A stretch of 64,000 nucleotides of DNA from Granulicella sp. (GTDB taxonomy: Bacteria; Acidobacteriota; Terriglobia; Terriglobales; Acidobacteriaceae): NCBI GenBank assembly GCA_965276885.1, contig OZ255702.1, forward strand, positions 1,137,286 through 1,201,285. The letters run 5' to 3'. Both the position numbers and the translations under genes were made by a program. Shown piece by piece: positions 3,583-60,820 of the stretch; within the stretch, counting starts at the first letter, position 1; each line of letters opens with the position of its first letter. The notes beneath the pieces are model-generated. The model did no database searches and was not told where the DNA came from. It saw only the letters and a list, made by a program, of their open reading frames with translations.

Positions 3583-3797
3583 AGCAAATTCCCCACAGGT
3601 GTACAGTGTCATCTCGACTGGAGCGGGACAGTTTTATCGTCCCGCGTAACGGAGAGACCCCTGTATTTCGCCCGGGGCGTCGAAACATCTGTGTAGCCAC
3701 AAATGAATACAGGGTCTTTCCACTCCGCCCATTCGACTCGCTTTGCTCGCTCAGGGCTCCGGTCGAGATGACACTGCATAGGGAGAGGTAAACCGTT
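3583..3797. repeat. Family E miniature element (about 215 bp) with internal inverted GTCATCTCGA-type repeats
   Basis: Bounded by TTAG and CTAA; internal inverted pair at 3608-3624 and 3756-3772; parts recur at 18585-18737 and 41700-41787. Confidence 0.75.
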
Positions 3798-10038: not shown

Positions 10039-10578
10039 ATGAAGAAACTTTCTCTTGCCATTCTCGCCGCCGCCGCCGCTCTTGTTTCCGCTGCTCCCGC
10101 TCTGGCTGACACCGTGAACTATAGCCTCACCACCGTCGACCCCACCGTCGCTGCCGGCGGATCCTTCACCTTTTACGGCTCCATCGTGGCACCGTCCGGC
10201 AACACCGGCAGCATCTCGATCCTTTCGGACGCGTTCTCATGCGCAGCCGGCTGCACGATCGACGACACGGGTTTTAGCAACACACCATTCACACTCGCTC
10301 CGGACCAGAGCTACATGGGGCCGCTGTTCACGGTGTCGACCCAAAGCAGGGATGCCGCAGGCAATTACGGGGGCCTCTTCGACATCACCTTTGCCGATTC
10401 CCTGGGCAACACCTTTACCGACAGCGACCCGTTCTCCGTCACCGTGGGCTCGACCGCGTCCGTCACGCCGGAACCCGCCTCGTGGCTGCTGCTGGGTACC
10501 GGCCTGCCCGCGGCGTGGCTGCTGCGCCGCCGCCTTCTCACCCGCGCCGCGAGTGGCCTAGCAGTAAGAATGCCCTAA
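10039..10578 (+). CDS. PEP-CTERM sorting-domain protein
   Basis: Signal peptide MKKLSLA...ALA-D; C-terminal VTPEPASWLLLGTGL...RRR. Confidence 0.9.
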   Translation: MKKLSLAILAAAAALVSAAPALADTVNYSLTTVDPTVAAGGSFTFYGSIVAPSGNTGSISILSDAFSCAAGCTIDDTGFSNTPFTLAPDQSYMGPLFTVSTQSRDAAGNYGGLFDITFADSLGNTFTDSDPFSVTVGSTASVTPEPASWLLLGTGLPAAWLLRRRLLTRAASGLAVRMP

Positions 10579-10708
10579 GGAGGCTCTGATTAAATCCTGC
10601 TACCGGGAAGGGCATGGCTTCAGCCATGCCGTAAGTGCCCTGCTTGCAACGCGCCTTTAGGCGCTGAGGTCAGCTCGATGCTGCTCTGGGTATTTGATCA
10701 GACCTTCC
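10579..10708. repeat. Family A miniature element, copy A1
   Basis: Ends GGAGGCTCTGATTAA and TTGATCAGACCTTCC; two hairpins with TTCA/TTTA loops; flanked by CTAA on both sides. Confidence 0.8.
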
Positions 10709-10712
10709 CTAA

Positions 10713-10832
10713 GGAATCTCTGAATAAGTGTCTGTCTGGAAGGGCGGGAACTTTATAGCGGTTCGCCGTAAATCCAGTAACAGCAACGCGACTTTAGCCG
10801 CTGAGATACGTTCGCTGACGATCAGACCTTCC
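10713..10832. repeat. Family A miniature element, copy A2 (tandem with A1)
   Basis: GGAATCTCTGAATAAG...GATCAGACCTTCC followed by CTAG; close to copies at 43308 and 45584. Confidence 0.8.
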
Positions 10833-17584: not shown

Positions 17585-18176
17585 GAGCTTGTTGAATAAC
17601 GTATAAGGCACGCGAGATTGCTGGGATGTTGTGGGGCAGCAGCGGTGATTGTTGTTTGAACCGAGCCGCAGGCCTGCATATACGAGTTTTGCTAGGCCGT
17701 TGAAAAGGCCGTTACCGGCCTTTCAGTGTCTTTCAGGCACACTGCTCCCCGAGCACTTCCGCGCTTTGTTGCGCGATCAGCCGGGTGCAGGATTGTGCGC
17801 GGCGCAGCTGAAGACGAGCATCCAGTCCACCTTGTGCCGCCCGCGCAGCTTCACCTGGCGCAGCGGCCGGTCTGCTTGAGCCACCCAAAGCTCTTTTCGA
17901 CCAGCCAGCGGCAGCTCAGGCTGATCGCGTAGCCGGGGTGCCGGGTGGTCCTGGCATTCATGTTGGAGCGCCGTCCGTTGTCGTTCTTGGTGATGTGCGG
18001 CGTGAAATTCAACTTGCGCGCGGCGGCGGCGAAGTCCTCGCTGTCTAGGCCTTATCGGCGCCCACGGTGATGCGCCGCGAGCGGCCCTTCCGCTTTTCTC
18101 CGGGCATCAGCAGCGCGGCTTCGCGCTCGGCAAAGCCGTCGACCTGGGTGGCCATCGCGGCCGCAATCAGGCCATT

Positions 18177-18211
18177 CACCCCAGCGCACAAGTGCGCCGG
18201 GGACCCCGGTT
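18177..18211. repeat. Family C short palindromic repeat inserted in the IS5 pseudogene
   Basis: CACCCCAGCGCACAAGTGCGCCGGGGACCCC is absent at the matching position of the intact paralog (about 44020). Confidence 0.75.
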
Positions 18212-18399
18212 GCGATTCTCCACCAGCACATGGCCCAGATACGCCAGGTATGACTCCTTGCCGTAGCTCTTCCTGTACAGCCGCGCGTCCGGATCGGTTC
18301 GATTCATGCGTCTCGTTGGAACGCTTGCCGCCATGGAAGTTGGTGCCGTCGTCATCCGAGCCGTCCTTGCGCCGGAAGCTCTTCTGCGACGCCCAGGCT

Positions 18400-18441
18400 T
18401 CTCACCCCACGGACGAAGACCTGTCCGTGGGGACCCCAATC
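18400..18441. repeat. Family C short palindromic repeat (42 nt) inserted in the IS5 pseudogene
   Basis: CACCCCACGGACGAAGACCTGTCCGTGGGGACCCC is absent at the matching position of the intact paralog (about 44208). Confidence 0.78.
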
Positions 18442-18584
18442 TGAATCAGTGTGCCGTCCACGGTGAAGTGCTCGTCCGACATCGATCACCACCCGGTCCG
18501 ACAACGTGAGATGACAATAACCTGCAGCCATAAGCAACAATCCCTTCTGCGGAAGTGTTGCACATGGACCCCTGAATCCGCCCA

Positions 18585-18737
18585 CCCCTGTATTTCGCTC
18601 GGGGCGTCAAAACATCTGTGTAGCCACAAACGAATACGGGGGTCTCTCCACTCCGGCTTCCACCCCAGCGAACAAGTTCGCTGGGGGCTCGGCTGCGCCT
18701 CCAGTCGAGAGGACACGGCATAGGAAGAGGTAAACCG
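18585..18737. repeat. Family E element, right-hand part, containing a family C palindrome at 18661-18688
   Basis: Shares CCCCTGTATTTCG, CATCTGTGTAGCCACAAA and GGTAAACCG with 3658-3795. Confidence 0.7.
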
Positions 18738-25682: not shown

Positions 25683-25751
25683 GCGGGAAGACGTGTCGCA
25701 AGGGATTAGACGTTTGAGCGCGGGCCGCGATGCATGGGTCTGGTGGGTGGA

Positions 25752-25920
25752 AAAGCGAACGCAAAGGGCGCAAAGGGAAAACGCAGAGGTGCGCAAAGGG
25801 AAACTCCGTGCGCTTTGCATACTCCTCCGTGCGCTTTGCATACTCCTCTGCGTTCTTCGCGTTCATCTTCTGCGCCCTTTGCGTTCGCCTTTGCTGCCCT
25901 TTGCGTTCGCCTTTGCTGCT
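25752..25920. repeat. Palindromic CGCAAAGG/CCTTTGCG repeat tract with internal tandem duplications
   Basis: AACGCAAAGGGCGCAAAGG versus CCCTTTGCGTT; CTCCGTGCGCTTTGCATACTC x2; CCCTTTGCGTTCGCCTTTGCTG x2. Confidence 0.8.
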
Positions 25921-25948
25921 CCTTAAGAACGCGCGATAGCATCGAGCC

Positions 25949-26785
25949 ATGGCCGAACAATACGCAGGAATTGTCCATCAAAAGCAGAGTAGGGCCGCTG
26001 AGGCCGTTGCGGAGGCCGCGGCCATCATGGCGCGGCTGCGCGGTCCCGGTGGCTGTCCGTGGGATCGCGAGCAGACCTTCGACACCATCAAGCGGCACAC
26101 GCTGGAGGAAACCTACGAGGTCTTCGACGCGATCGAACGCCGCGCCTGGCCCGACCTCCGCGACGAACTCGGCGATCTGCTGCTGCAGATCCTCTTCTAC
26201 GCGCAGATGGCCGAAGAGGCCGGACACTTCAGCCTGCGCGACGTCGCTGAGGCGCTCAGCGCCAAGCTGATTCGCCGTCACCCCCACATCTTCGCGGATG
26301 CCGTCGCTCACGACGCCGGCGCGGTGCTGCGCCACTGGGAGCAGATCAAGCGTGAAGAAAAACGTGCGGCAGCCTCGGTGATCGAAGATCAGTCTGCGCT
26401 CGACAGCATCCCGCGCTCGATGCCCGCGATGCTGGAAGCCGCGAAGCTGGGCTCCAAAGCCGCGAAGGCCGGTTTTGATTGGCCGGATGCCGGCGGTCTC
26501 TTCGCAAAACTCGAAGAGGAGACGCAGGAGTTGAAAGCTGAACTCAACGCGGGCGCTCATGACGCCGCGGAAGCCGAGTTCGGCGATCTGCTGTTTACCG
26601 CAATGAATCTTGCCCGTCATCTCGGCATCGACCCGGAATCCGCTTTACGCCGCACAAACGCGAAATTCCGCAGCCGCTACACGATGATGGAGCAGCTGGC
26701 CGGCGGGACAGACGCTTTCGAAGCCGTCCCTTTGGCCGAAAAAGAAGAATTCTGGACGCAAGCGAAGGCTCGGGTGATCCCGTAA
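25949..26785 (+). CDS. mazG: Nucleoside triphosphate pyrophosphohydrolase MazG
   Basis: LRGPGGCPWDREQT; EETYEV; ELGDLLLQ; KLIRRHPHIF; EFGDLLF. Confidence 0.95.
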   Translation: MAEQYAGIVHQKQSRAAEAVAEAAAIMARLRGPGGCPWDREQTFDTIKRHTLEETYEVFDAIERRAWPDLRDELGDLLLQILFYAQMAEEAGHFSLRDVAEALSAKLIRRHPHIFADAVAHDAGAVLRHWEQIKREEKRAAASVIEDQSALDSIPRSMPAMLEAAKLGSKAAKAGFDWPDAGGLFAKLEEETQELKAELNAGAHDAAEAEFGDLLFTAMNLARHLGIDPESALRRTNAKFRSRYTMMEQLAGGTDAFEAVPLAEKEEFWTQAKARVIP

Positions 26786-26834
26786 GGACGATCCCATGCC
26801 CGTTAGAAATTTTCTGCATTGATTATGTTCTTTC

Positions 26835-26874
26835 TGTCATTCGCCCTGAGCATGGCCGAACGAGAGGGAATCTG
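26835..26874. repeat. Family B REP-like unit (GTCATTCGCCCTGAGC...GAGGGAAT)
   Basis: Near-identical inverted copy at 49926-49966. Confidence 0.65.
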
Positions 26875-26942
26875 TTGTTGCGCACCAGGGGAATCTCTGC
26901 ACAAGTCCTGTCATCGTCTTTGGGAGGGAGCGTAGGGCTTCA

Positions 26943-27100
26943 CAGGCTGCGGAAAAACTCTTCAGGAATCCAAAATTCGTAAAATTTGGAGGTCTGGCGA
27001 CATGGCAAAGTATCACCAAATTCGCATCGGTTATTTGTAGGGCATCCTCGCACGATGAGATTTTCGGGTCGTTCCTACAAAAGAGTTTTTCCGCAGCCTG
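26943..27100. mobile_element. 158-bp MITE with 18-bp terminal IRs, inserted in a TTCA hairpin loop
   Basis: CAGGCTGCGGAAAAACTC / GAGTTTTTCCGCAGCCTG; TTCA duplicated at 26939-26942 and 27101-27104. Confidence 0.85.
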
Positions 27101-27149
27101 TTCAGCCCTTGTATCTTGCATTGTGAGGCGTGACGATAGGTTACGTTTT

Positions 27150-27282
27150 GGCGGTGAGGCCGTTCAGCCCTGAGGCCGGTGAGAGCCGAGCCTGCCTGTA
27201 GATCGGCCCCCGTCCCTCTCTTTTTGACGCCGTGGAGAATCGGAGGCCTTGTGAGCCTGCATGTTCAAGGTTGGCGGAAAGA
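27150..27282 (+). ncRNA. Predicted bridge RNA with target-binding and donor-binding loops
   Basis: Two stem / internal loop / hairpin modules carrying TTCAGCCCT plus GTAG (target) and GGAGAATC plus CAAG (donor). Boundaries approximate. Confidence 0.75.
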
Positions 27283-27345
27283 GCAAGTCCGTGCGGAGCG
27301 GACGCGGGACGGTGCCGAAGCTCAGGGTAAATCCGGAGGAGAGCG

Positions 27346-28356
27346 ATGGGCAAGGCAGCAGTTTCCAGTCAGGCGTTTTGCGGAATCGATGTCAGTGCGG
27401 CGACGCTTGCCGCGGCGGTTCAGCGTGGGGACCGGGAGGGGTTCGAGCAGCGCGAGTTCGCCAACTCTGCGGCCGGTCACCGCCAGCGGGTCGAGTGGCT
27501 GGGCAAGCGCGGTGCAATGGTCCGGGTGTCGCTTGAAGCCACCGGCATCTACTCGCTGGACGTGGCCCTGGCGCTCGATCGGGCCGGCGGCCTCGAGGTC
27601 GCGGTGCTCAACCCCAAGACGGTCAACCGGTTCGCCCAGACGCTACGGCGGTCCAAGACGGACGCGGTGGCGCTGGCCGAGTACAGCCTGCGGATGCCGT
27701 TCGTTCCTTGGCAGCGGCCCAGTCCGGTGGCGCTGGCGCCGCGGGCGATCAGCCGGCATAGCGCCGCGCTCACCCGGGATCCTACCCGGGCGAGCAACCG
27801 GTTGCACGCCGCCGAGGGCTCGGCCACGACCCCCCGCTGTGTGCGGGAGGATCTCAAACGTTCGATGGCTGGGTTCGGCAAGCGCATCGCGCGGCTGCGC
27901 AAGCAAGCGCTGGCGATGGTTCGCCAGGACGCCGTGTTGCAGCGGAAGTTCGAGCAGCTGGTGGCCATGCCGGGCATCGCCGAGACCAGCGCGGTGCAGC
28001 TGCTCAAGCGAACTGGCGGGACTGGACCCGAAGATGACGGTGCGTCAGTGGGTGGCCCACAGTGGGCTCGACCCGGCGCACCGGCAATCCGGCACGTCGA
28101 TCCATCTTCCGTCGCGCATCAGCCGCCACGGCAACAGCCATCTCCGGCGCGCGCTCTACATGCCGGCGCTCGTGGCCTCGCGGCGCGACTCCCATCCGAG
28201 GGCTTTTTCTCAGGCCCTGCTGGGCAGGCAAAAAACCAAGCTCCAGGCCATCATGGCCGTAGCCCGGAAACTGCTTCACGCCATCTTCGGTCTCTTCAAA
28301 ACAGGAACAGCCTACGATGGAGCAAACTCTTTCCCCAACTCGTACCCACTTCCTAG
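27346..28356 (+). pseudogene. IS110 recombinase with two compensating frameshifts
   Basis: GIDVS, LEATG, QSGTS, ISRHGN, ARKLLH; extra A near 28006 and missing A near 28325; KTDxxDA shortened to KTDA. Confidence 0.85.
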
Positions 28357-28440
28357 AAAATCTTTTGCTCTTACCCCAGCAAATCCCTTGCAATCCAAAG
28401 AGAGAATCTACGGCAAAACGGCCAAATACAAGGGGCTTCA

Positions 28441-28573
28441 GTGTGTGCGTGAGAACTCAATGACGATTGCCCAAAACCGTGTAAAACAGACTAAATTTGT
28501 ATAGAAAACGAGCGCCACGGGTCGTAGCAAATCATATAAATGCGCACGTCCGGATGAGTTCTCACGCAGACAC
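28441..28573. mobile_element. 133-bp MITE with 19-bp terminal IRs, inserted in a TTCA hairpin loop
   Basis: GTGTGTGCGTGAGAACTCA / TGAGTTCTCACGCAGACAC (1 mismatch); TTCA duplicated at 28437-28440 and 28574-28577. Confidence 0.85.
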
Positions 28574-28634
28574 TTCAGCCCGGGCATTTTGCCCGGGCCC
28601 ACTCCATCGACTTGATCAGACCTTCCCAAGAAGC

Positions 28635-29591
28635 TCAGCGGGTAGGCACAGGCATGGCCAGCAGCTCACGAATCGCCTCCTGATACGAGACCGGCGCCGG
28701 CAGCACCTGCGGATTCCAGGCGCTGCTGTGCGATTGCTCATTGACCGTGTGCACCAGCATCTCGCGCAGCGTGACCTGCTCGCTCAGCCGCGAATAAAAC
28801 CAGCGGCGCTCCGCGGCCTGCCGCTGCTCCAGCTCCACCGTGCCACCCTCGCTTACGCGCGCCAGCACCCCGCCCCAGCCGAAGTCCACCGGGTGCAGAA
28901 TGCGGGCCTGGATGCGCGTAACGCAGCGAGTCTGCCCATCGATCCACACGCGTCCCGCGATGGCCGTAAGCCCCCCGGTGATCAGGCTCGGCGGCTTGAA
29001 GTTTGGGTCCGGCGTGAAGTCAAGCACGATCTGCGCTCCCGAAAGATCCGGCAGCTGCGGCTGTCCGGGCGCATAGCTCCAGAGCATCGCCCGGGGCAGC
29101 GCATGCACCAGCTCCAGGGCATAGTCGCGGCCTGCGTGATCATGCCGGTGCCGCCGCACAAAGGCGTCCGGCGAACGCAGCAGATCGTTCAGCCGGTCCC
29201 GTTCCGCATTGTTCTCCTCCGCGGTGAGCGGTTTGCCGTCTCGCTGCACGATGCGAGCGACCGTCCCGTCGCGGCTTTCGATGAGGATGCGGGTTGTGTC
29301 GCCCCTCGCGTTCACCTTGCGCTCGGTGAAGCGCAGCGGAATGTCGGTGCCGGCGTTGAGAATGCGCTCCTGGCTCGCTGCCCCCGCCTCGGCCCAGGCA
29401 AGGGGCGGCCGCTTGAGGAGATCCGCTGCCGTTGCGGCGGCCTGCGGCGCAGCTCCTGCTGCCGTCGCCTGACCTCCAAGCTGCGCTGGCAGACCGCTTG
29501 CAAACGCCGGAAGCAGCGCTGCCGCACGGAGGCCGCGAGCTAGGCTCTTCCTCGTCGCTCGGCTTAAAAAGACAGGGCTGGCTCTCCGCAT
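28635..29591 (-). CDS. Exported protein of unknown function
   Basis: Long ORF with signal-like N-terminus from ATG 29591; beta-strand-rich body (IVLDFTPDPNF, GRVWID). Confidence 0.75.
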   Translation of the reverse strand: MRRASPVFLSRATRKSLARGLRAAALLPAFASGLPAQLGGQATAAGAAPQAAATAADLLKRPPLAWAEAGAASQERILNAGTDIPLRFTERKVNARGDTTRILIESRDGTVARIVQRDGKPLTAEENNAERDRLNDLLRSPDAFVRRHRHDHAGRDYALELVHALPRAMLWSYAPGQPQLPDLSGAQIVLDFTPDPNFKPPSLITGGLTAIAGRVWIDGQTRCVTRIQARILHPVDFGWGGVLARVSEGGTVELEQRQAAERRWFYSRLSEQVTLREMLVHTVNEQSHSSAWNPQVLPAPVSYQEAIRELLAMPVPTR

Positions 29592-29784: not shown

Positions 29785-30435
29785 ATGATGAATTTCTTCA
29801 AACGCCGCGGCGGTGCGGGTGAGGGCAATGTACCGGAGCGCACGCGACAGTCGCGCGGCTGGGCCGAGGTGCTGAAATTCATGCGGAGCGAGCCGGCGCG
29901 ATCGTTGCGCGTGCTGGACTTCGGAACCACCTCGCCCACCAACATCAATCTGCTTACCTCGCTTGGCCACAGCGTGTACATGGCCAATATTGTGGGCGAG
30001 GCAACCAAGCCGGAGTGGCTGAAGGCCCCCGCGGCAGGAGCCCGTCCCAACGCGGCGCCGGAGTACGACGCGGAGCGGTTCGCGGCAGCCAACCTGGACT
30101 TCTCCGGCCGCGACTTCGACGTCATCCTGCTATGGGATACGGTGGATTACCTGCCGCCTGCGCTGGTGCCGGCGCTCTTTGACAGGCTGCGAACGGTCAC
30201 TCGCCCGGAGGGCCGCCTGCTGGGCTTCTTTCACGGCAAGGCGGATGGGCCAAATACAGGCTATGCGCGCTATCAGGTTACCGATTCCGATCAGTTGCGG
30301 CTTTTGGGAAGCGATCCTTTGCCCATCCGGCAGATTATCCAGAACCGCCAGGTTGAGCGCTATCTTGAAGGCTTCACCACGATCCGGTTCTTTCAGGGTG
30401 TCGATAACGTCCGCGAGGTCATCGCGGTTCGCTAG
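29785..30435 (+). CDS. Class I SAM-dependent methyltransferase-like protein
   Basis: RVLDFG motif I; FDVILLWD motif; GGAG before ATG 29785. Confidence 0.7.
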   Translation: MMNFFKRRGGAGEGNVPERTRQSRGWAEVLKFMRSEPARSLRVLDFGTTSPTNINLLTSLGHSVYMANIVGEATKPEWLKAPAAGARPNAAPEYDAERFAAANLDFSGRDFDVILLWDTVDYLPPALVPALFDRLRTVTRPEGRLLGFFHGKADGPNTGYARYQVTDSDQLRLLGSDPLPIRQIIQNRQVERYLEGFTTIRFFQGVDNVREVIAVR

Positions 30436-30499
30436 TGTGATGTCCCGCAAGTTCGCTGCACAATTTGAGTTGTCATCCTTCTATGAAAAAGGCGCACCT

Positions 30500-31723: not shown

Positions 31724-31911
31724 GGCGTACCTCTCTCTGGATGAAATGTGTGCTTCGAGCACGTACCAGGAAGGTACGCCTCTCTTCATCCCATCTGAGC
31801 GGAGTTTGGCGCGTTTCTGCGCCAAACGGAGTCGAAGGATCTGCTTTCGTTCCGGTCGCTACACCGTTCCGATACCGGCCAATGTGCCGAAGTTCCGGGA
31901 CACCAGACTAG

Positions 31912-32077: not shown

Positions 32078-32081
32078 CTAA

Positions 32082-32239
32082 TGTGGTGTCCCAGAACTTC
32101 GATCCATATGTCGCGCCCTGAACCGTGTAGCCGACCGAAGCGAAAAGCAGGTCCTTCGACTGCGTTTTGCGCAAAAAGCGCGCCAAACTCCGCTCAGGAT
32201 GACAATTCAATTTATGCGACAAACTTGCGGGACACCACA
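32082..32239. repeat. Family D element D3 (158 bp), inverted near-identical copy of 43128-43285
   Basis: TGTGGTGTCCC / GGGACACCACA ends, flanked by CTAA and CTAG. Confidence 0.88.
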
Positions 32240-32306
32240 CTAGCGGGATTACAAAAAGAAAAAGGAGAGCATCGCCCTCCCTTTTTTCTATCCCCAAAAA
32301 ACCGTC

Positions 32307-35706: not shown

Positions 35707-35800
35707 GGGCCGTTTGGCGGCCTCAAAACCCGGCCCTGAAGAGCTTTGAAGGGGACTTCCGTTTACGCAGGCTAAAGCAAATAACATACCCCTAGACAGC

Positions 35801-35936
35801 GTCATCTCGACCGGAGCGCAGCGTAGTGGAGAGACCTGCAGTTTGTTGCGGTTGCAGGAGACTTGTAGCCGCGCGGAAGAACTACAGGTCTCTCCACTCC
35901 GCAAACGATGAAGCTGTTCGCTCCGGTCGAGATGAC
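35801..35936. repeat. Inverted pair of family B REP-like units
   Basis: GTCATCTCGACCGGAGC...GGAGAGACCTG versus CAGGTCTCTCC...GCTCCGGTCGAGATGAC. Confidence 0.8.
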
Positions 35937-41699: not shown

Positions 41700-41787
41700 A
41701 GCAAATTCCCATAGCTATGCAGTGTCATCTCGACTGGAGCGGGACGGTTTATCGTCCCGCGTAATGGAGCGACCCCTGTATTTCATT
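41700..41787. repeat. Family E element, left part
   Basis: After TTAG: AGCAAATTCCC...GTCATCTCGACTGGAGCGGGAC...CCCCTGTATTTC, matching 3583-3670. Confidence 0.75.
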
Positions 41788-43094: not shown

Positions 43095-43127
43095 GTCCTA
43101 TGGATCTAGAATTCGATCAGAACCTAA

Positions 43128-43285
43128 TGTGGTGTCCCGCAAGTTTGTCGCATAAATTGAATTGTCATCCTGAGCGGAGTTTGGCGCGCTTTTTGCGCCA
43201 AACGCAGTCGAAGGACCTGCTTTTCGCTTCGGTCGGCTACACGGTTCAGGGTGCGACATATGTATCGAAGTTCTGGGACACCACA
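43128..43285. repeat. Family D element D4 (158 bp, intact)
   Basis: TGTGGTGTCCC / GGGACACCACA ends, flanked by CTAA and CTAG. Confidence 0.88.
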
Positions 43286-43307
43286 CTAGAGTTTGACCAG
43301 AATCCAA

Positions 43308-43436
43308 GGAATCTCTGAATAAGTGTCCGTCTTGAAGGGGCGGGACTTTAGTCCCGCCGTAAATCCAGTAACAGCAACGCGGCTTTTAGCCGCTGAGGTA
43401 CGCTTTCGCTCGTTCCCGGACTTGATCAGACCTTTC
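43308..43436. repeat. Family A element, copy A4
   Basis: GGAATCTCTGAATAAG...TTGATCAGACCTTTC followed by CTAG. Confidence 0.82.
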
Positions 43437-43440
43437 CTAG

Positions 43441-44716
43441 GAGCTTGTTGAAATAACTGCTGATCGATGCGGTTCTGCTGAAGATTTGCTCCTGGGGAGC
43501 TTTTGTTGATGGATAGCTTGGTTTGTATTGGAGGCTGGCGAGTGTTTTTGAACACTCAACCTGTTTTCAGGCGCACTGCTGCTCGGGGCCCTGCGCGGCT
43601 TGTTGCGCGATGAGCCTGGGGAGGCGCAGGAGGTTGTGCGCGGCGCAGCTAAAGACGAAGGTCCAATCCACCTTGGCCAGACCGCGCACCTTCACCTGGC
43701 GCACCGGCCCGGTCTGCTTCAGCCAGCCGAAGCTCTTTTCGACCAGCCAGCGGCAGCTCAGGCTGATCGCATAGCCGGGGTGCCGGGTGGTCCTCCCGTC
43801 CATGTTGGAGCGGCGGCCCTTGTTGTTCTTCGTGATGTGCGGCGTGACATGCAGGCTCCGCGCGGCGACGACGAAATCCTCCGCGTCGTAGGCCTTGTCC
43901 GCGCCCACGGTGATGCGTCGCGTGCGGCCCTGCTGCTTGTCGGCCAGCATCAGCAGCGCGGCGTCGCGCTCGGCAAAGCCATCGGCCTGGGTGGCCATCG
44001 CGGCGGCGATCAGACCGTTCCGGTTCTCCACCAGCACATGGCCCAGGTAGGCCAGCTTCGACTCCGTGCCGTAGCTCTTCTTGTACAGCCGGGCCTCCGG
44101 ATCGGTGGTCGATTCATGGGTCTTGTTCGACCGCTTCTCCCCGTGGAAGTTGGTGCCGTCGTCGTCCGAGCCGTCCTTTATGCGAAAGCTCTTGTGCGAC
44201 GCCCACGCTTGAATCAAGGTGCCGTCGACAGTGAAGTGCTCATCGCTCATAAAACCCTTCGCCTGCTGAACCACCGCGGCGAAAAACTGTTGCGCCACGT
44301 CCGAGGTCAGCAAACGGTCGCGGTTTTTCGAAAACACCGCGTGGTTCCAAACCGCATCGTCCATGCCCAGGCCCACAAACCAGCGGAACAGCAGGTTGTA
44401 GTCCAGCTGCTCGACCAGCTGCCGTTCCGAACGCACTGAATAGAACGCCTGCAAGAGCAGCGCCCGCAGCACATACTCGGGCGCGATCGAAGGCCGCCCC
44501 GAAGCCGAATACAGGCTGTCAAACTCTTCGCTCAACGAGCGCAAAACAACGTCCGTCAGCCGACGAATCTCCCGCAGCGGATGATCCTGAGGCACACGCT
44601 GCTCCAACGTCACATAGCTGAACATCCCACCCTGCAACCGCTCGTCTCCACGCATACTCCATAGACGAAATAACCCTCAAATCCGCCGAAATACTGGAAC
44701 CTTTTTCAACAAGCTC
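43441..44716 (-). mobile_element. IS5-family insertion sequence, 1276 bp
   Basis: IRs GAGCTTGTTGAAA / TTTCAACAAGCTC, flanked by CTAG and CTAA. Confidence 0.92.
43567..44655 (-). CDS. IS5-family DDE transposase
   Basis: RVPQDHPLR; SERQLVEQL; VDGTLI; TTDPEARL; GADKAYD; RWLVEKSFGW. Confidence 0.93.
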   Translation of the reverse strand: MRGDERLQGGMFSYVTLEQRVPQDHPLREIRRLTDVVLRSLSEEFDSLYSASGRPSIAPEYVLRALLLQAFYSVRSERQLVEQLDYNLLFRWFVGLGMDDAVWNHAVFSKNRDRLLTSDVAQQFFAAVVQQAKGFMSDEHFTVDGTLIQAWASHKSFRIKDGSDDDGTNFHGEKRSNKTHESTTDPEARLYKKSYGTESKLAYLGHVLVENRNGLIAAAMATQADGFAERDAALLMLADKQQGRTRRITVGADKAYDAEDFVVAARSLHVTPHITKNNKGRRSNMDGRTTRHPGYAISLSCRWLVEKSFGWLKQTGPVRQVKVRGLAKVDWTFVFSCAAHNLLRLPRLIAQQAAQGPEQQCA

Positions 44717-45363: not shown

Positions 45364-45496
45364 GAAATCTCTGAGTAAGTCTTGTCGTCGTCTTTGGGAG
45401 AGCGTGGGGCTTCACCCCACGGTAAAACGGCCAAATATTGGGGCTTCAGCCCCGGGCAGATGTTGGGCCCCATCCATTGACTTGATCAGAGTTTCC
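45364..45496. repeat. Family A element, copy A5 (intact reference for A3)
   Basis: GAAATCTCTGAGTAAG...TTGATCAGAGTTTCC, between CTAA and CTAA. Confidence 0.82.
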
Positions 45497-45500
45497 CTAA

Positions 45501-45554: not shown

Positions 45555-45583
45555 CTCCAAGAGAGCTTCCGCGGAATACCTAA

Positions 45584-45743
45584 GGAATCTCTGAATAAGT
45601 GTCTGTCTGGAAGGGGCGGGACTTTAGTCTGAAATGGCAGGACTTTAGTCTGAAGGGGCGGGACTTTAGTCCCGCCGTAAATCCAGTAACAGCAACGCGG
45701 CTTTAGCCGCTGAGGCACGTTCGCTGACTTGATCAGACCTTCC
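45584..45743. repeat. Family A element, copy A6, with an internal 3 x 21 bp expansion
   Basis: Flanked by CTAA; GAAGGGGCGGGACTTTAGTCT-like unit repeated three times at 45610-45672. Confidence 0.82.
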
Positions 45744-46112
45744 CTAAGGAAAGCCCGGGCGCCGAACCCTTCAGAAGGTAAATCGCATGAACGGTTGCAA
45801 GTGATAGCCATCTACATGGCCTCCGAACCCGTCGCAACAGTCCGGGAGAGGGCCCTTGCACAGGATGACCCAGGAATCCGCTATCCTGAAATCACCCGAA
45901 TTCCGACCGCGCGGACCCAGCTCCGGGCGGTTCCCGCGACCTCGCGCTAAGTTGTTTAAAACAGATACTTTGCACGCAAATCTTTTGTTTTGAATACTTT
46001 GCCGGTTCTACCTCCTTGCATCTTTAACAAAACAAAGACTTTGCGTCCGCGGTACCCCCGGGGAGGGGCGGGGGACCGGGCAGGGAGTCTGCTGCAGGCA
46101 GTCCACCGGCCT

Positions 46113-58561: not shown

Positions 58562-58657
58562 AGCGGCGCGCGTGAGTTGAATCTACGACATGAACAAACC
58601 GGGGCGAGATGCAGGTGCCCTTTGTTCTGACGCGTCAGTAAACACAAGCCGACTTAG

Positions 58658-58746
58658 GGAAGGTCTGATCAAGTCAACGGATAGTAGCCAATAAAATGCC
58701 CGGGGCTGAAGCCCCATGTATTTCGGCGTTTTATCGTAGGGCTGAA
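58658..58746. repeat. Family A element, copy A7 (reverse orientation, truncated)
   Basis: After TTAG: GGAAGGTCTGATCAAG...GGGGCTGAAGCCCC...GTAGGGCTGAA, broken at the hairpin loop. Confidence 0.78.
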
Positions 58747-58754
58747 CAGGCTGC

Positions 58755-59294
58755 AAGGCCAGGCTGTTCGGCATCAGTAAGCGCGGCAACGTCTACCTGC
58801 GCAAGATGCTGATCCATGGCGCACGGGGCGCCGTGCTCCGCACCAAACGGGACAGTTCGCCTTTCGGTGCCTGTCTGGATCGACTGGACGCCAGGGCTCA
58901 CACGAACGTCGTCGTGGTGGCCATGGCCAACAAGCTCGCCCGCATCGCCTGGGCGGTTCTGTCGAGCGGCAACAACTATCGATCGGCAGCCGCGCCAGCC
59001 TAACCAGCGCGGAAAAGAACGCCTGCGGCGCTCCCACTTTCCCGCACTTCGACAACGAATAAGCTCTCCACCGAGGTCTGCACAGGGCAACAAGGACGAA
59101 AGAACAGTCACAACGGCGTGTCTGCAGCCTGGTACCGACAATGGTCTTAAACGACCGTGCGACTTATAAGGACCGATACGCGCGCATCTCATCCTGGCCA
59201 GGAGAACTAGTCTCCACTCAAAGGCCGAATACATTTGCGCAGACTTGTCTTCTCGACCAAACTTCCCCCTTGCAGTCGCGCGGCGGACCATACA
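58755..59294 (+). mobile_element. IS1111-type IS110 fragment: transposase C-terminus (58755-59003) plus long right end
   Basis: GISKRGNVYLRKMLIHGAR...AMANKLARIAWAVL; right end finishes TTGCAG...GGCGGACCATAC. Confidence 0.82.
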
Positions 59295-59398
59295 CTCTTA
59301 GGACTTGCCATGCCACTCACCAAGCGCCGGATTGGGCTTGAAGTTAAGGCCGTGACTACATTTTGAGTCGAAGGCGTGGAAGGGACGCTCGAATATCT

Positions 59399-60301
59399 GT
59401 GAGCAAGCAGACCTCCTCATCTTTGCAGATCGCTGTTATCGGAGTTGGAGGCATTGGAAGCACCTTCGCCTTCCAACTGGCCAACACCGGTCAAAATCGT
59501 GTAACCGTTGTTGCGCGTTCCGGATCACTCCGGTTGGAACAGTTGCAACGCGATCAGGGCATCGTCAACCTTAAAGGTGAACGTGCAGATGTACTTGTCA
59601 CCGATCGCCTTGATGAGCAGACGCCCTACGATCTCGTGCTCGTCACACTGCAGGCGCAACAGGTCGAGGCCGTGCTGCCCGCCCTTCAGCGCAGCGTGGC
59701 CCACCGGATCCTGTTTATGTTCAATAACTTTGAACCAGAGCGTTTGAGGGACGCTGCCGGCGCAGAGCGCTCCTCGTTTGGAATGCCCTTCGTGCAGGCG
59801 ACTGTCAACTCTGACGGAAAGTTGAACGCAAGGATCGGTGCTCAAGGCCAAAAGAGCAAAATTGACCAACAGGATTGTGTGGATCTCTTCAATGCTGCCG
59901 GCCTTCCCGCTGTTCTTGAGCACGAGATGCTGCTCTGGCTCCGATGCCACGTTCCCTTGTGTGTCGCTTTTGAAAGCATATGCGTGGCCGGGGTTCGTCG
60001 TGGTGGTGGTGCGTCGTGGGGCGAGTCGATGACGATCGCACGGGGTATGCAGGAAAGCTACACGCTTATCCAGCGGCTCGGCTATCGTTTGTATCCATCA
60101 GGCAAGGCGAGACTTCACGCAAGTCCGGCATGGATGGTCGCAGGCATGCTCTGGGGTATGTCCCGCGTGATTTCGTTTCGCAATCTGCTTGCCACCGGCG
60201 TTAACGAGTGCCGGGCGCTGGGAGAGGTTTTGGTCACAGCGGCGCATCGAGCGGATCCCCCTGTTTCGGTGGAGTTGATCGCGGCGATGAAACCATCCTG
60301 A
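59399..60301 (+). CDS. Ketopantoate-reductase-family oxidoreductase
   Basis: IAVIGVGGIG; YDLVLVT; ILFMFN; WLRCH. Lower GC than flanks; probable GTG start. Confidence 0.8.
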   Translation: MSKQTSSSLQIAVIGVGGIGSTFAFQLANTGQNRVTVVARSGSLRLEQLQRDQGIVNLKGERADVLVTDRLDEQTPYDLVLVTLQAQQVEAVLPALQRSVAHRILFMFNNFEPERLRDAAGAERSSFGMPFVQATVNSDGKLNARIGAQGQKSKIDQQDCVDLFNAAGLPAVLEHEMLLWLRCHVPLCVAFESICVAGVRRGGGASWGESMTIARGMQESYTLIQRLGYRLYPSGKARLHASPAWMVAGMLWGMSRVISFRNLLATGVNECRALGEVLVTAAHRADPPVSVELIAAMKPS

Positions 60302-60363
60302 CCATCCCAAGGCTTGGCAGGAGCCGACACAAAATTTAAGAAGACGGAAATCCTGCATTATTT

Positions 60364-60820
60364 GTGAAGCAGCTATTGGCCTACACGGCCAACCTGCAGA
60401 CCTCGCTGATTGGGCTTGAAGCTTGTGCCGGAGCTCACTTCCTGGGCCGGGCTTTGCGCAAGCAGGGCCACGATGTTCGGCTGATTCCAGGACAGTTCGT
60501 AAAGCCGTTCGTGAAGTCCAACAAGAACGACTTCGTAGACGCTGAGGCCATTGCCGAGGCCGTCGAGCGCAAGAACATGCGCTTTGTCCCGATCAAGACC
60601 GACGACCAGCTGGACCTGCAAGCGATCCACCGAGTGCGGGACAGGCTGGTCTCACGACGCACCGCCGTGATCACCAGATCCGTGCCTTTCTGCTGGAACG
60701 CGGCCTGGTGTTCGCAAAGAGGCCGGCCCAACTCAAGGCTGCCATGGCAGACATCCTGGAGAACGCAGAGGCTGACTTCACCCCGATGATGCGCAACCTG
60801 ATCAACACGCTATGGAGCGG
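60364..60820 (+). pseudogene. Internal fragment of an IS110 (IS1111-type) transposase
   Basis: GLEACAGAH; KNDFVDAEAIAEA; frameshift near 60672; both ends missing. Confidence 0.82.

Follow-up and report, generated by a model that had tools for sequence, protein, structure and literature searches.

Three probably independent, site-specific insertions nested in one hairpin-bearing miniature transposon of a Granulicella genome

How do three mobile elements come to lie within 90 nt of a single copy of one small repeat? The question is raised by a nested stack at positions 26889-28627 of a 64,000-nt stretch of Granulicella sp. (contig OZ255702.1; hereafter the window), in which two miniature transposable elements with inverted repeats (MITEs), here called MITE1 and MITE2, and an element of the IS110 family interrupt one copy of a repeat that we call family A. 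The stack lies between the convergent genes mazG and a 352-aa open reading frame (ORF), and its density of insertions is unusual. We hold, with a probability of roughly 0.85, that it records three independent site-specific insertions into a single family A MITE carrying a module that resembles repetitive extragenic palindromes (REP sequences): one RNA-guided insertion of the IS110 element and two insertions of IS5-type MITEs by cutting at hairpin tetraloops. Coordinates are those of the window, and the features of the stack are read on its plus strand; read-derived data came from four public runs of one sample (the source sample), in which 96-97% of the words of the region are present.

The nesting can be undone in silico. 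Removal of MITE1, the IS110 element and MITE2, together with one TTCA, one CT and one TTCA, respectively, rebuilds a repeat collinear with the intact window copy at 45364-45497, and the junctions and coordinates all proved to be as the original prediction, made from the letters alone, had described them. The rebuilt repeat measures 140 nt rather than the 130 bp then proposed and is itself a MITE; its positions 4-140 align to window positions 45366-45497 (80.7% identity, E 2e-28), and its right 90 nt also match 58657-58746 on the minus strand. Its left part (26889-26942, aligning to 45364-45417) comprises GGAATCTCTG as the left inverted repeat (IR), GCGTAGGGC as the 5' arm of hairpin 1 and, at 26939-26942, the TTCA loop. 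Beyond MITE1, junction analysis places a second TTCA followed by GCCCT, the start of the hairpin-1 3' arm (27101-27109). The middle part (28408-28440) holds a copy of the CT core, ACGG as the rest of the hairpin-1 3' arm, the spacer CAAAACGGCCAAATACAA, the hairpin-2 5' arm GGGGC and its loop TTCA (28437-28440), and the right part (28574-28627) a second TTCA, the hairpin-2 3' arm, a third hairpin GCCCGGGC-ATTTT-GCCCGGGC and the right IR GACTTGATCAGACCTTCC. Hairpin 1 reads GTAGGGC-TTCA-GCCCTAC; the fold calculated for the rebuilt repeat contains it (GCGTAGGGC-TTCA-GCCCTACG) along with a 3' hairpin around GCCCGGGC, and beats 200 of 200 shuffled sequences (z = -3.97).

Family A begins with GGAATCTCTG and ends with CAGACCTTCC, in the pattern GGAAnnTCTGA, and CTAA or CTAG stands beside four window copies (at 10578, 10711, 45364 and 45582); the copy in the stack has the degenerate flanks CAGG and CAAG. 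Ends of this type are common in many phyla, bounding MITEs of 90-290 bp and elements of 1.17-1.2 kb with CTAG or CTAT duplications, and the long elements (our loci L034 and L069) encode an IS5-family transposase (NF033581, 333 bits). Since ends of the same type bound elements with an IS5 transposase, we regard family A as an IS5-type MITE. A scan of a genome collection with the family A terminus GACTTGATCAGASNTTYCC returned IS5-type ends from many phyla, and no family A, MITE1 or MITE2 was found among the matches listed (120 loci). The cargo of family A is a two-hairpin module with the hairpins about 20 nt apart, and a similar module (a hairpin, GCAAA..GCCGCAAAAT.. and GGGC-TTYA-GCCC-CTGAGGGA) is found in unrelated peat and soil contigs; hence, the landing pad is broader than the 140-nt family. 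As is typical of REP sequences, hairpin 1 is short, GC-rich and extragenic, carries a GTAG head and lies between convergent genes, and its GTAG is reminiscent of the GTAG-tagged REP class (PMC3733652). By depth, family A amounts to about 6-17 copies per genome, against the at least 100 that define REP sequences and bacterial interspersed mosaic elements (BIMEs). A sister subfamily with TTTA loops occupies 10578-10832, 43306-43440 and 45582-45745 of the window; two of its copies stand in tandem with one CTAA in common, and in the copy at 45582-45745 GGACTTTAGTCTGAA is tripled internally at the hairpin loop (~45615-45665).

The IS110-family element (27110-28407; 1298 bp) lacks inverted repeats, is flanked by CT at 27108-27109 and 28408-28409, and is decayed and present once in the source sample (1x depth). 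Three-frame translation and alignment to nine intact homologues (68-82% identity) delimit a transposase pseudogene at 27346-28356, the read-through protein of which contains DEDD_Tnp_IS110 (PF01548, 2e-18) and Transposase_20 (PF02371, 6.6e-18) and scores 174.5 bits against NF033542, 'IS110 family RNA-guided transposase' (cut-off 140). More than 2600 homologues were found, the best (79-82% identity) from soil metagenomes. Compared with the nine intact homologues, a 9-nt deletion at ~27663 drops KAD of the conserved SKTDKADA, and the Asp lost with it (KTDxxDA motif) is probably catalytic; frameshifts follow at ~28006 (+1) and ~28326 (-1). Judged by its sequence, this copy is dead, a fossil. Its boundaries were fixed by relatives: 22 relative loci were checked, and 13 related metagenomic IS110 elements at different sites show similarity starting exactly at base 1 and, in those strongly similar throughout, ending exactly at base 1298. 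All 13 are flanked by CT on both sides (CT/TGTATC...GAGAAT/CT, slashes marking the junctions). A joint of the right to the left end, as in a circular intermediate, was not seen among the assembled contigs of the four runs. One relative of the same clade (L131:659-1723; target GGCACGAC-TGAA-GTCGTGCC/CT) follows immediately downstream of a DDE_Tnp_1 transposase gene (IS4/IS5-type), possibly another nested arrangement.

What directed this element to the hairpin-1 arm is suggested by its own left end. A consensus fold and guide matches point to a predicted bridge-RNA region (27128-27330) with a 5' stem-loop, a target-binding loop and a donor-binding loop. The 236-nt left end holds both target guides: the left one (TTCAGCCCT, 27163-27171) is identical at 9/9 positions to the left flank plus core, and the right one (GTAG, 27198-27201, extended from 27193), located 27 nt downstream of TTCAGCCCT, is at 4/4 positions the reverse complement of CTAC, i.e., core plus right flank. 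The target spelled by the guides is TTCAGCC-CT-AC, with TTCAGCC as the left target and CT (27108-27109) as the core. Both target guides of IS621 include the core (PMC11208160), and the window element shows the same arrangement. The left donor guide (GGAGAATCG, ~27234-27242) matches at 7/9 and the right donor guide (TTCAAG, ~27264-27269) at 5/6 positions; another candidate for the latter, AGCAAG at 27284-27289, was dropped because the consensus fold puts the TTCAAG strand in the internal loop.

In the consensus fold of ten relatives, the target guides face each other across an internal loop, which the invariant stem GGCCG/CGGCC closes, and the inner stem of the target loop covaries, pair 70/79 being changed on both sides in four sequences. 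The second internal loop carries GGAGAATCG and TTCAAG, matching as donor the invariant element ends AGAGAAT-CT-TGTA. Across ten guide/flank pairs, guides agree with their own flanks at 13.3 of 15 positions versus 8.1 of 15 for mismatched pairs, and none of 20000 permutations reached the observed total. The relatives L264 and L265 have the same left guide and left target as the window element; most relatives' targets lie in or beside small palindromes, e.g., GGCACGAC-TGAA-GTCGTGCC/CT and CCGGGAT-A-ATCCCGGAC/CT. Rfam held no family matching the region, the only hit being a chance-level one to a terminator-like hairpin. Given the guide match and the covariation, the IS110 insertion is explained by RNA-guided reading of 11 nt of the repeat and not by the hairpin loop. 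Thus, the convergence on hairpins that had been proposed for all three inserts stands for the two MITEs, which sit at TTCA loops, while the IS110 element lies in the hairpin-1 3' arm and reads sequence through its guides. Separately, the segment between uvrC and mazG (25700-25950) is of low complexity: several of its frames translate into repetitive peptides rich in K/A/E/R or in F/A, and it is similar to the A/G-rich 'AAAGGCAAGAGC' tracts flanking the IS110 relatives L134-L142.

MITE1 (26943-27100; 158 bp) is a non-autonomous IS5-family element: it is short and non-coding, has perfect 20-bp IRs starting with CAGGCTGCGGAAAAACTCTT, stands between TTCA at 26939-26942 and 27101-27104, and occurs in several copies, about six near-identical ones by depth in the source metagenome. 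The boundary of its duplication is ambiguous, TTCA being one reading and TCA or TTC the others. The unitigs that its copies share reach only one base to the left (A) and two to the right (TT), and therefore the third base of the flanking tetranucleotide varies. Its 18-nt terminus matched at least 120 loci in metagenome contigs, mostly from peat and soil, and 137 termini were analysed among the matches listed, to which the following counts refer. The adjoining 4-mers were TTTA (34), TTCA (21), CTAG (12), TAAA (11), TGAA (9), CTAA (7), TTAA (5) and TTAG (5), and the triplet before them was GGC in 70 cases (51%) and GAC in 15 (11%). An identical 4-bp duplication flanks 31 of the 53 listed complete short elements, and in 23 of the 53 the flanks are directly paired over at least 4 bp, ten of these over 8 bp. 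These flank statistics indicate that the lineage prefers as its target a GC-rich hairpin tetraloop (GGC-TTYA-GCC) in either orientation. A 1325-bp element with the same 18-nt ends (L172), inserted as GGGCATGGC-TCAA/IS/TAAA-GCCATGCC, encodes a transposase of the IS5 family (NF033581, 233 bits, cut-off 140; Pfam DUF772 and DDE_Tnp_1). The claim that two unrelated chemistries met at this repeat is borne out by it, the one enzyme being an IS5-family DDE transposase and the other an IS110-family DEDD recombinase. An insertion of the IS200/IS605 type, 3' of TTCA and without duplication, was ruled out by the long IRs of both MITEs and by the DDE transposase of the MITE1 relative. Tandem arrays with periods of 54, 53 and 102 nt were seen in metagenome contigs (L235:1-200, L228:6630-6760 and L167:8550-8860, respectively); in each unit, a MITE1-type terminus is combined with half a REP-like hairpin (the left half) and with TTCA or TTTA, and the arrays possibly arose by slippage or by repeated one-ended events.

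MITE2 (28441-28573; 133 bp) has 19-bp IRs, GTGT(G/C)TGCGTGAGAACTCA, with one mismatch, and is flanked by TTCA at 28437-28440 and 28574-28577, though the boundary of the duplication is ambiguous and may extend to CTTCAG. Its IRs are identical to those of MITE1 at 12 of 18 end-anchored positions, and both elements duplicate TTCA; the ends of the two are, to go by this likeness, probably related. Hence, of the 'three different elements' first described, three separate insertions are upheld, whereas the number of kinds is closer to two, as MITE1 and MITE2 apparently belong to one transposon superfamily. By depth, MITE2 has about two copies, and the only other one in the source sample (...GGGGC-TTCA/MITE2/TTCA-GCCCACGCTCCCTCCCC) sits in a GGGGC-TTCA-GCCC loop, that of hairpin 1 of an inverted family A copy. 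No match to the MITE2 ends was found in viral contigs or in any fetched locus.

We infer that the IS5-type transposase reads the palindrome as a duplex sequence, GRC-TNNA-GYC, and not as an extruded hairpin. The rival explanation, in which it recognises a DNA structure, such as an extruded cruciform or a single-stranded tetraloop hairpin (e.g., on the lagging strand), seems to us the less probable of the two, yet deserves to be taken seriously. The stems flanking the insertions differ widely in sequence, with complementarity up to 8 bp (CGGCGGC with GCCGCCG, GGCACGAC with GTCGTGCC, ATGGGCC with GGCCCAT), the loops are used in both orientations (TTCA/TGAA and TTTA/TAAA), and a requirement for structure was reported for the IS110 element ISPpu10 (preprint 10.64898/2026.03.19.712850). 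However, the three loop-adjacent base pairs are strongly biased towards the GGC and GAC noted above, 29 of the 137 listed termini lie at stemless YTAR, the classical IS5 duplex target, and the long stems may merely mirror the fact that the available GGC-TNNA-GCC sites are REP-like hairpins. A further-reaching proposal, which we offer tentatively and consider doubtful, is that the lineage of MITE1 (ends CAGGCTGCGGAAAAACTC) forms an IS5 branch, widespread in Acidobacteria-rich peat and soil, dedicated to structure-gated insertion into hairpin tetraloops, whereby the loop would turn into the 4-bp duplication, and that it spreads together with MITE-borne landing pads. If so, REP-like pads would ride on MITEs, including those of the same lineage, so that lander and pad would co-spread and produce nested stacks and tandem arrays, and DNA-structure-gated targeting would be undescribed for an IS5-family DDE transposase.

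Are the positions themselves non-random? Of the seven copies in the window, three belong to the TTCA and four to the TTTA subfamily; together they offer some 14 hairpin loops as well as two sites that match the IS110 target perfectly. The events in the stack fell on predicted positions, i.e., MITE1 in loop 1, MITE2 in loop 2 and the IS110 element at TTCAGCC/CT/AC, and no insertion elsewhere in the repeat was found in any of the seven window copies of family A and its sister subfamily. The copy at 58657-58746 is broken exactly at loop 1, beside CAGGCTGC, which equals the MITE1 terminus over its initial 8 nt. One paralogue in the source sample carries MITE1 at hairpin 1 and no IS110 element (joint of 27107 to 28408, 1x depth), and a further MITE1 copy continues into TTCAGCCCT, beyond which the DNA is different. 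The view that the insertions are site-specific was supported by re-use of the positions in the copy ending at 58746, in the MITE1 paralogue and in the second MITE2 copy. At least nine contigs of the source sample represent intact copies reading TTCA-GCCCTACG; most pads are thus empty, and the IS110 target, although present many times, was used once. As to the 58657-59012 region, CAGGCTGC there can equally be read as part of the coding sequence of a C-terminal fragment of the IS110 family (Transposase_20, E 6e-4), and an N-terminal IS110-family fragment (DEDD_Tnp_IS110, E 6e-13) lies 1.3 kb downstream at 60364-60786, with an ApbA/PanE-like ORF between them and the order scrambled. The arrangement at 58657-60786 could be a scar of MITE1 that was followed by a deletion, or could stem from capture via a cryptic end.

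The same observations bear on the suggestion that there was no targeting at all and that random insertions survived only in neutral intergenic repeats. The site between convergent genes, where insertions are likely harmless, would accord with it, as would the argument that REP sites are 'secure' (PMC1525189). Neutrality alone, however, would spread insertions over the repeat and the rest of the spacer, while the observed ones are precise to the nucleotide: in a body of ~140 nt, three of them (insertions or scars) fall on the two loop positions; moreover, the IS110 flank equals the guide at 9/9 positions, guide and flank covary in a highly non-random manner, and GGC precedes 51% of the 137 listed termini. 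This suggestion is already contradicted by these data, and we give it very little credence. As for survival, the sites presumably persist because insertions between convergent genes do no harm. The original prediction of a 'safe landing pad' for a community of elements was therefore right in substance, although the idea is already established for REP sequences (PMC1525189).

Every junction of the stack is spanned by contigs from all four runs at about single-copy depth. Unitigs at ~1x depth lead from the unique flank through family A into MITE1 (26400-26952), from MITE1 into the IS110 element (27073-27248), from the latter through the spacer into MITE2 (27263-28493), and from MITE2 through family A into the other unique flank (28545-28844). 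That the stack is an assembly artefact fusing repeats of different loci is scarcely credible given these four-run unitigs, although the IS110 element is its only single-copy component, all others being multi-copy, and at 27033, 28530 and 28532 none of the read-derived contigs agrees with the window. These letters (A versus G, A versus G and T versus A, respectively) lie inside MITE1 and MITE2 and are possibly consensus errors in repeats or the result of a mix-up of copies during polishing. A composite transposon, in which the three inserts moved as one, was ruled out, as every one of them has ends and a duplication of its own.

Taken together, our results suggest the following course of events for the three independent insertions. 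The bridge RNA of the IS110 left end would have paired with TTCAGCC-CT-AC, i.e., the hairpin-1 loop and 3' arm, exchange would have taken place at the CT core, and the element would later have decayed. MITE1 would have been inserted by a DDE transposase acting in trans, through a 4-bp staggered cut at the tetraloop of GRC-TNNA-GYC, so that the loop TTCA became the duplication, and MITE2, with its related ends, would have entered the hairpin-2 loop by the same process. The order was probably family A, then the IS110 element, then the MITEs, as the IS110 element is old, being decayed, and the MITEs are young, their copies being near-identical.

Several points weigh against this account. Our data cannot separate recognition of sequence from recognition of structure, and the IS110 copy is a pseudogene, the activity of which is not demonstrable from the locus. 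About one fifth of the listed MITE1-lineage termini (29/137) are at plain CTAG, CTAA, TTAG or TTAA with no hairpin, so that this lineage prefers the hairpin but does not need it. The autonomous partner of MITE1 (L172) comes from a different metagenome and not from the source organism; an autonomous partner of MITE2 was not found in the window, the fetched loci or the viral contigs, nor one of family A in the source organism. Finally, the census of copies comprises the 64-kb window, unitig depth and junctions; unitigs break inside repeats, and contig layouts on MITE1, MITE2 and the intact copy give copy numbers and a few flanks.

Other repeats were seen in the window. A MITE-like family of ~166 bp with IRs CTARTGTGGTGTCCCGCAAG is represented at 30432-30479, 31814-31911, 32078-32243 and 43124-43289, by two full copies and further ends. 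A family of ~210 bp with the inverted ends GTCATCTCGACTGGAG and CTCCGGTCGAGATGAC occurs at 3587-3795, 18584-18737, 35780-35827 and 41703-41784. In addition, a duplicated segment of ~700 bp (17731-18476 and 43565-44244; 78-88% identity, mostly 84-88%) is probably a paralogous gene pair.

The stack brings two unrelated targeting solutions within a few bases of each other, an RNA guide that would spell 11 nt and a DDE transposase that would cut a 4-nt loop, and it extends both the rule that REP sequences are hot spots for insertion sequences and the bridge-RNA mechanism to Acidobacteria. The ten natural guide/target pairs from one clade, several with targets in or near palindromes, could inform rules for reprogramming bridge RNAs, and an abundant, uncharacterised IS5 lineage that prefers hairpin loops is a testable tool for site-specific insertion. 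For annotation, many short 'repeats' in metagenome-assembled genomes from soil are nested MITEs, and these break assemblies.

Insertion into palindromes has precedents. IS1397 and ISKpn1 enter at the loop and duplicate 3-4 bp. Their insertion is specific to REP or palindromic units, and that of IS621 occurs on the 3' side of REPs (PMC3184786). REP sequences in general are hot spots for the IS3, IS110, IS4, IS256 and IS5 families, which was interpreted as 'secure' transposition (Tobes and Pareja, 2006; PMC1525189). The stack represents the same concept as these REP/BIME hot spots, palindromic extragenic repeats struck by several families, but differs in its low copy number (~6-17 by depth), in a module that rides on a MITE with IS5-type IRs, and in having three insertions in one copy. 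The IS3-family elements IS1397 and ISKpn1 of E. coli and Klebsiella resemble MITE1 and MITE2 in that a DDE transposon enters an intergenic palindrome at a specific site and makes a short duplication there (PMC3184786; PMC1525189); here, however, the transposase family is IS5 (NF033581), the elements are MITEs, the duplication is the 4-nt tetraloop, and the lineage also uses plain YTAR. With the IS5 (InsH) group, family A has in common the ends GGAAnnTCTGAtnAAG ... CTTGATCAGAnnTTCC and the CTAA or CTAG flanks, which fit the 1.17-1.2-kb IS5 elements of other genomes, and the MITE1 lineage has in common the 4-bp duplication, while its targets go beyond YTAR to include TTYA/TRAA tetraloops with GGC/GCC closure.

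The closest parallels of the IS110 element are IS621, for which the bridge-RNA mechanism and architecture were described in 2024 (PMC11208160), and the REP-inserted elements ISPpu9, ISPpu10, ISPa11 and ISRm19. They share with it the DEDD and Transposase_20 domains, the lack of IRs, the CT core and a left-end bridge RNA, here a predicted one, with target and donor loops. Here as there, the 3' portion of a palindrome of the GTAG...CTAC type contains the target; TTCAGCCCTAC of the window agrees at 9/11 positions with ATCAGGCCTAC, the natural target of IS621, and, as ISPpu10 reportedly requires a hairpin 5' of the core (preprint 10.64898/2026.03.19.712850), so the window target has a hairpin 5' of its core. 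The window element differs in its host, an acidobacterium (Terriglobia-like), in that its nearest proteins are uncharacterised and metagenomic, with at most 82% identity, in being a dead single copy, and in that the palindrome lies inside a MITE and is not a free-standing REP. What is new here, in comparison with all these systems, is the host phylum, the presence of the hairpins on an IS5-type MITE, an abundant IS5 lineage that prefers tetraloops, and the density of insertions.

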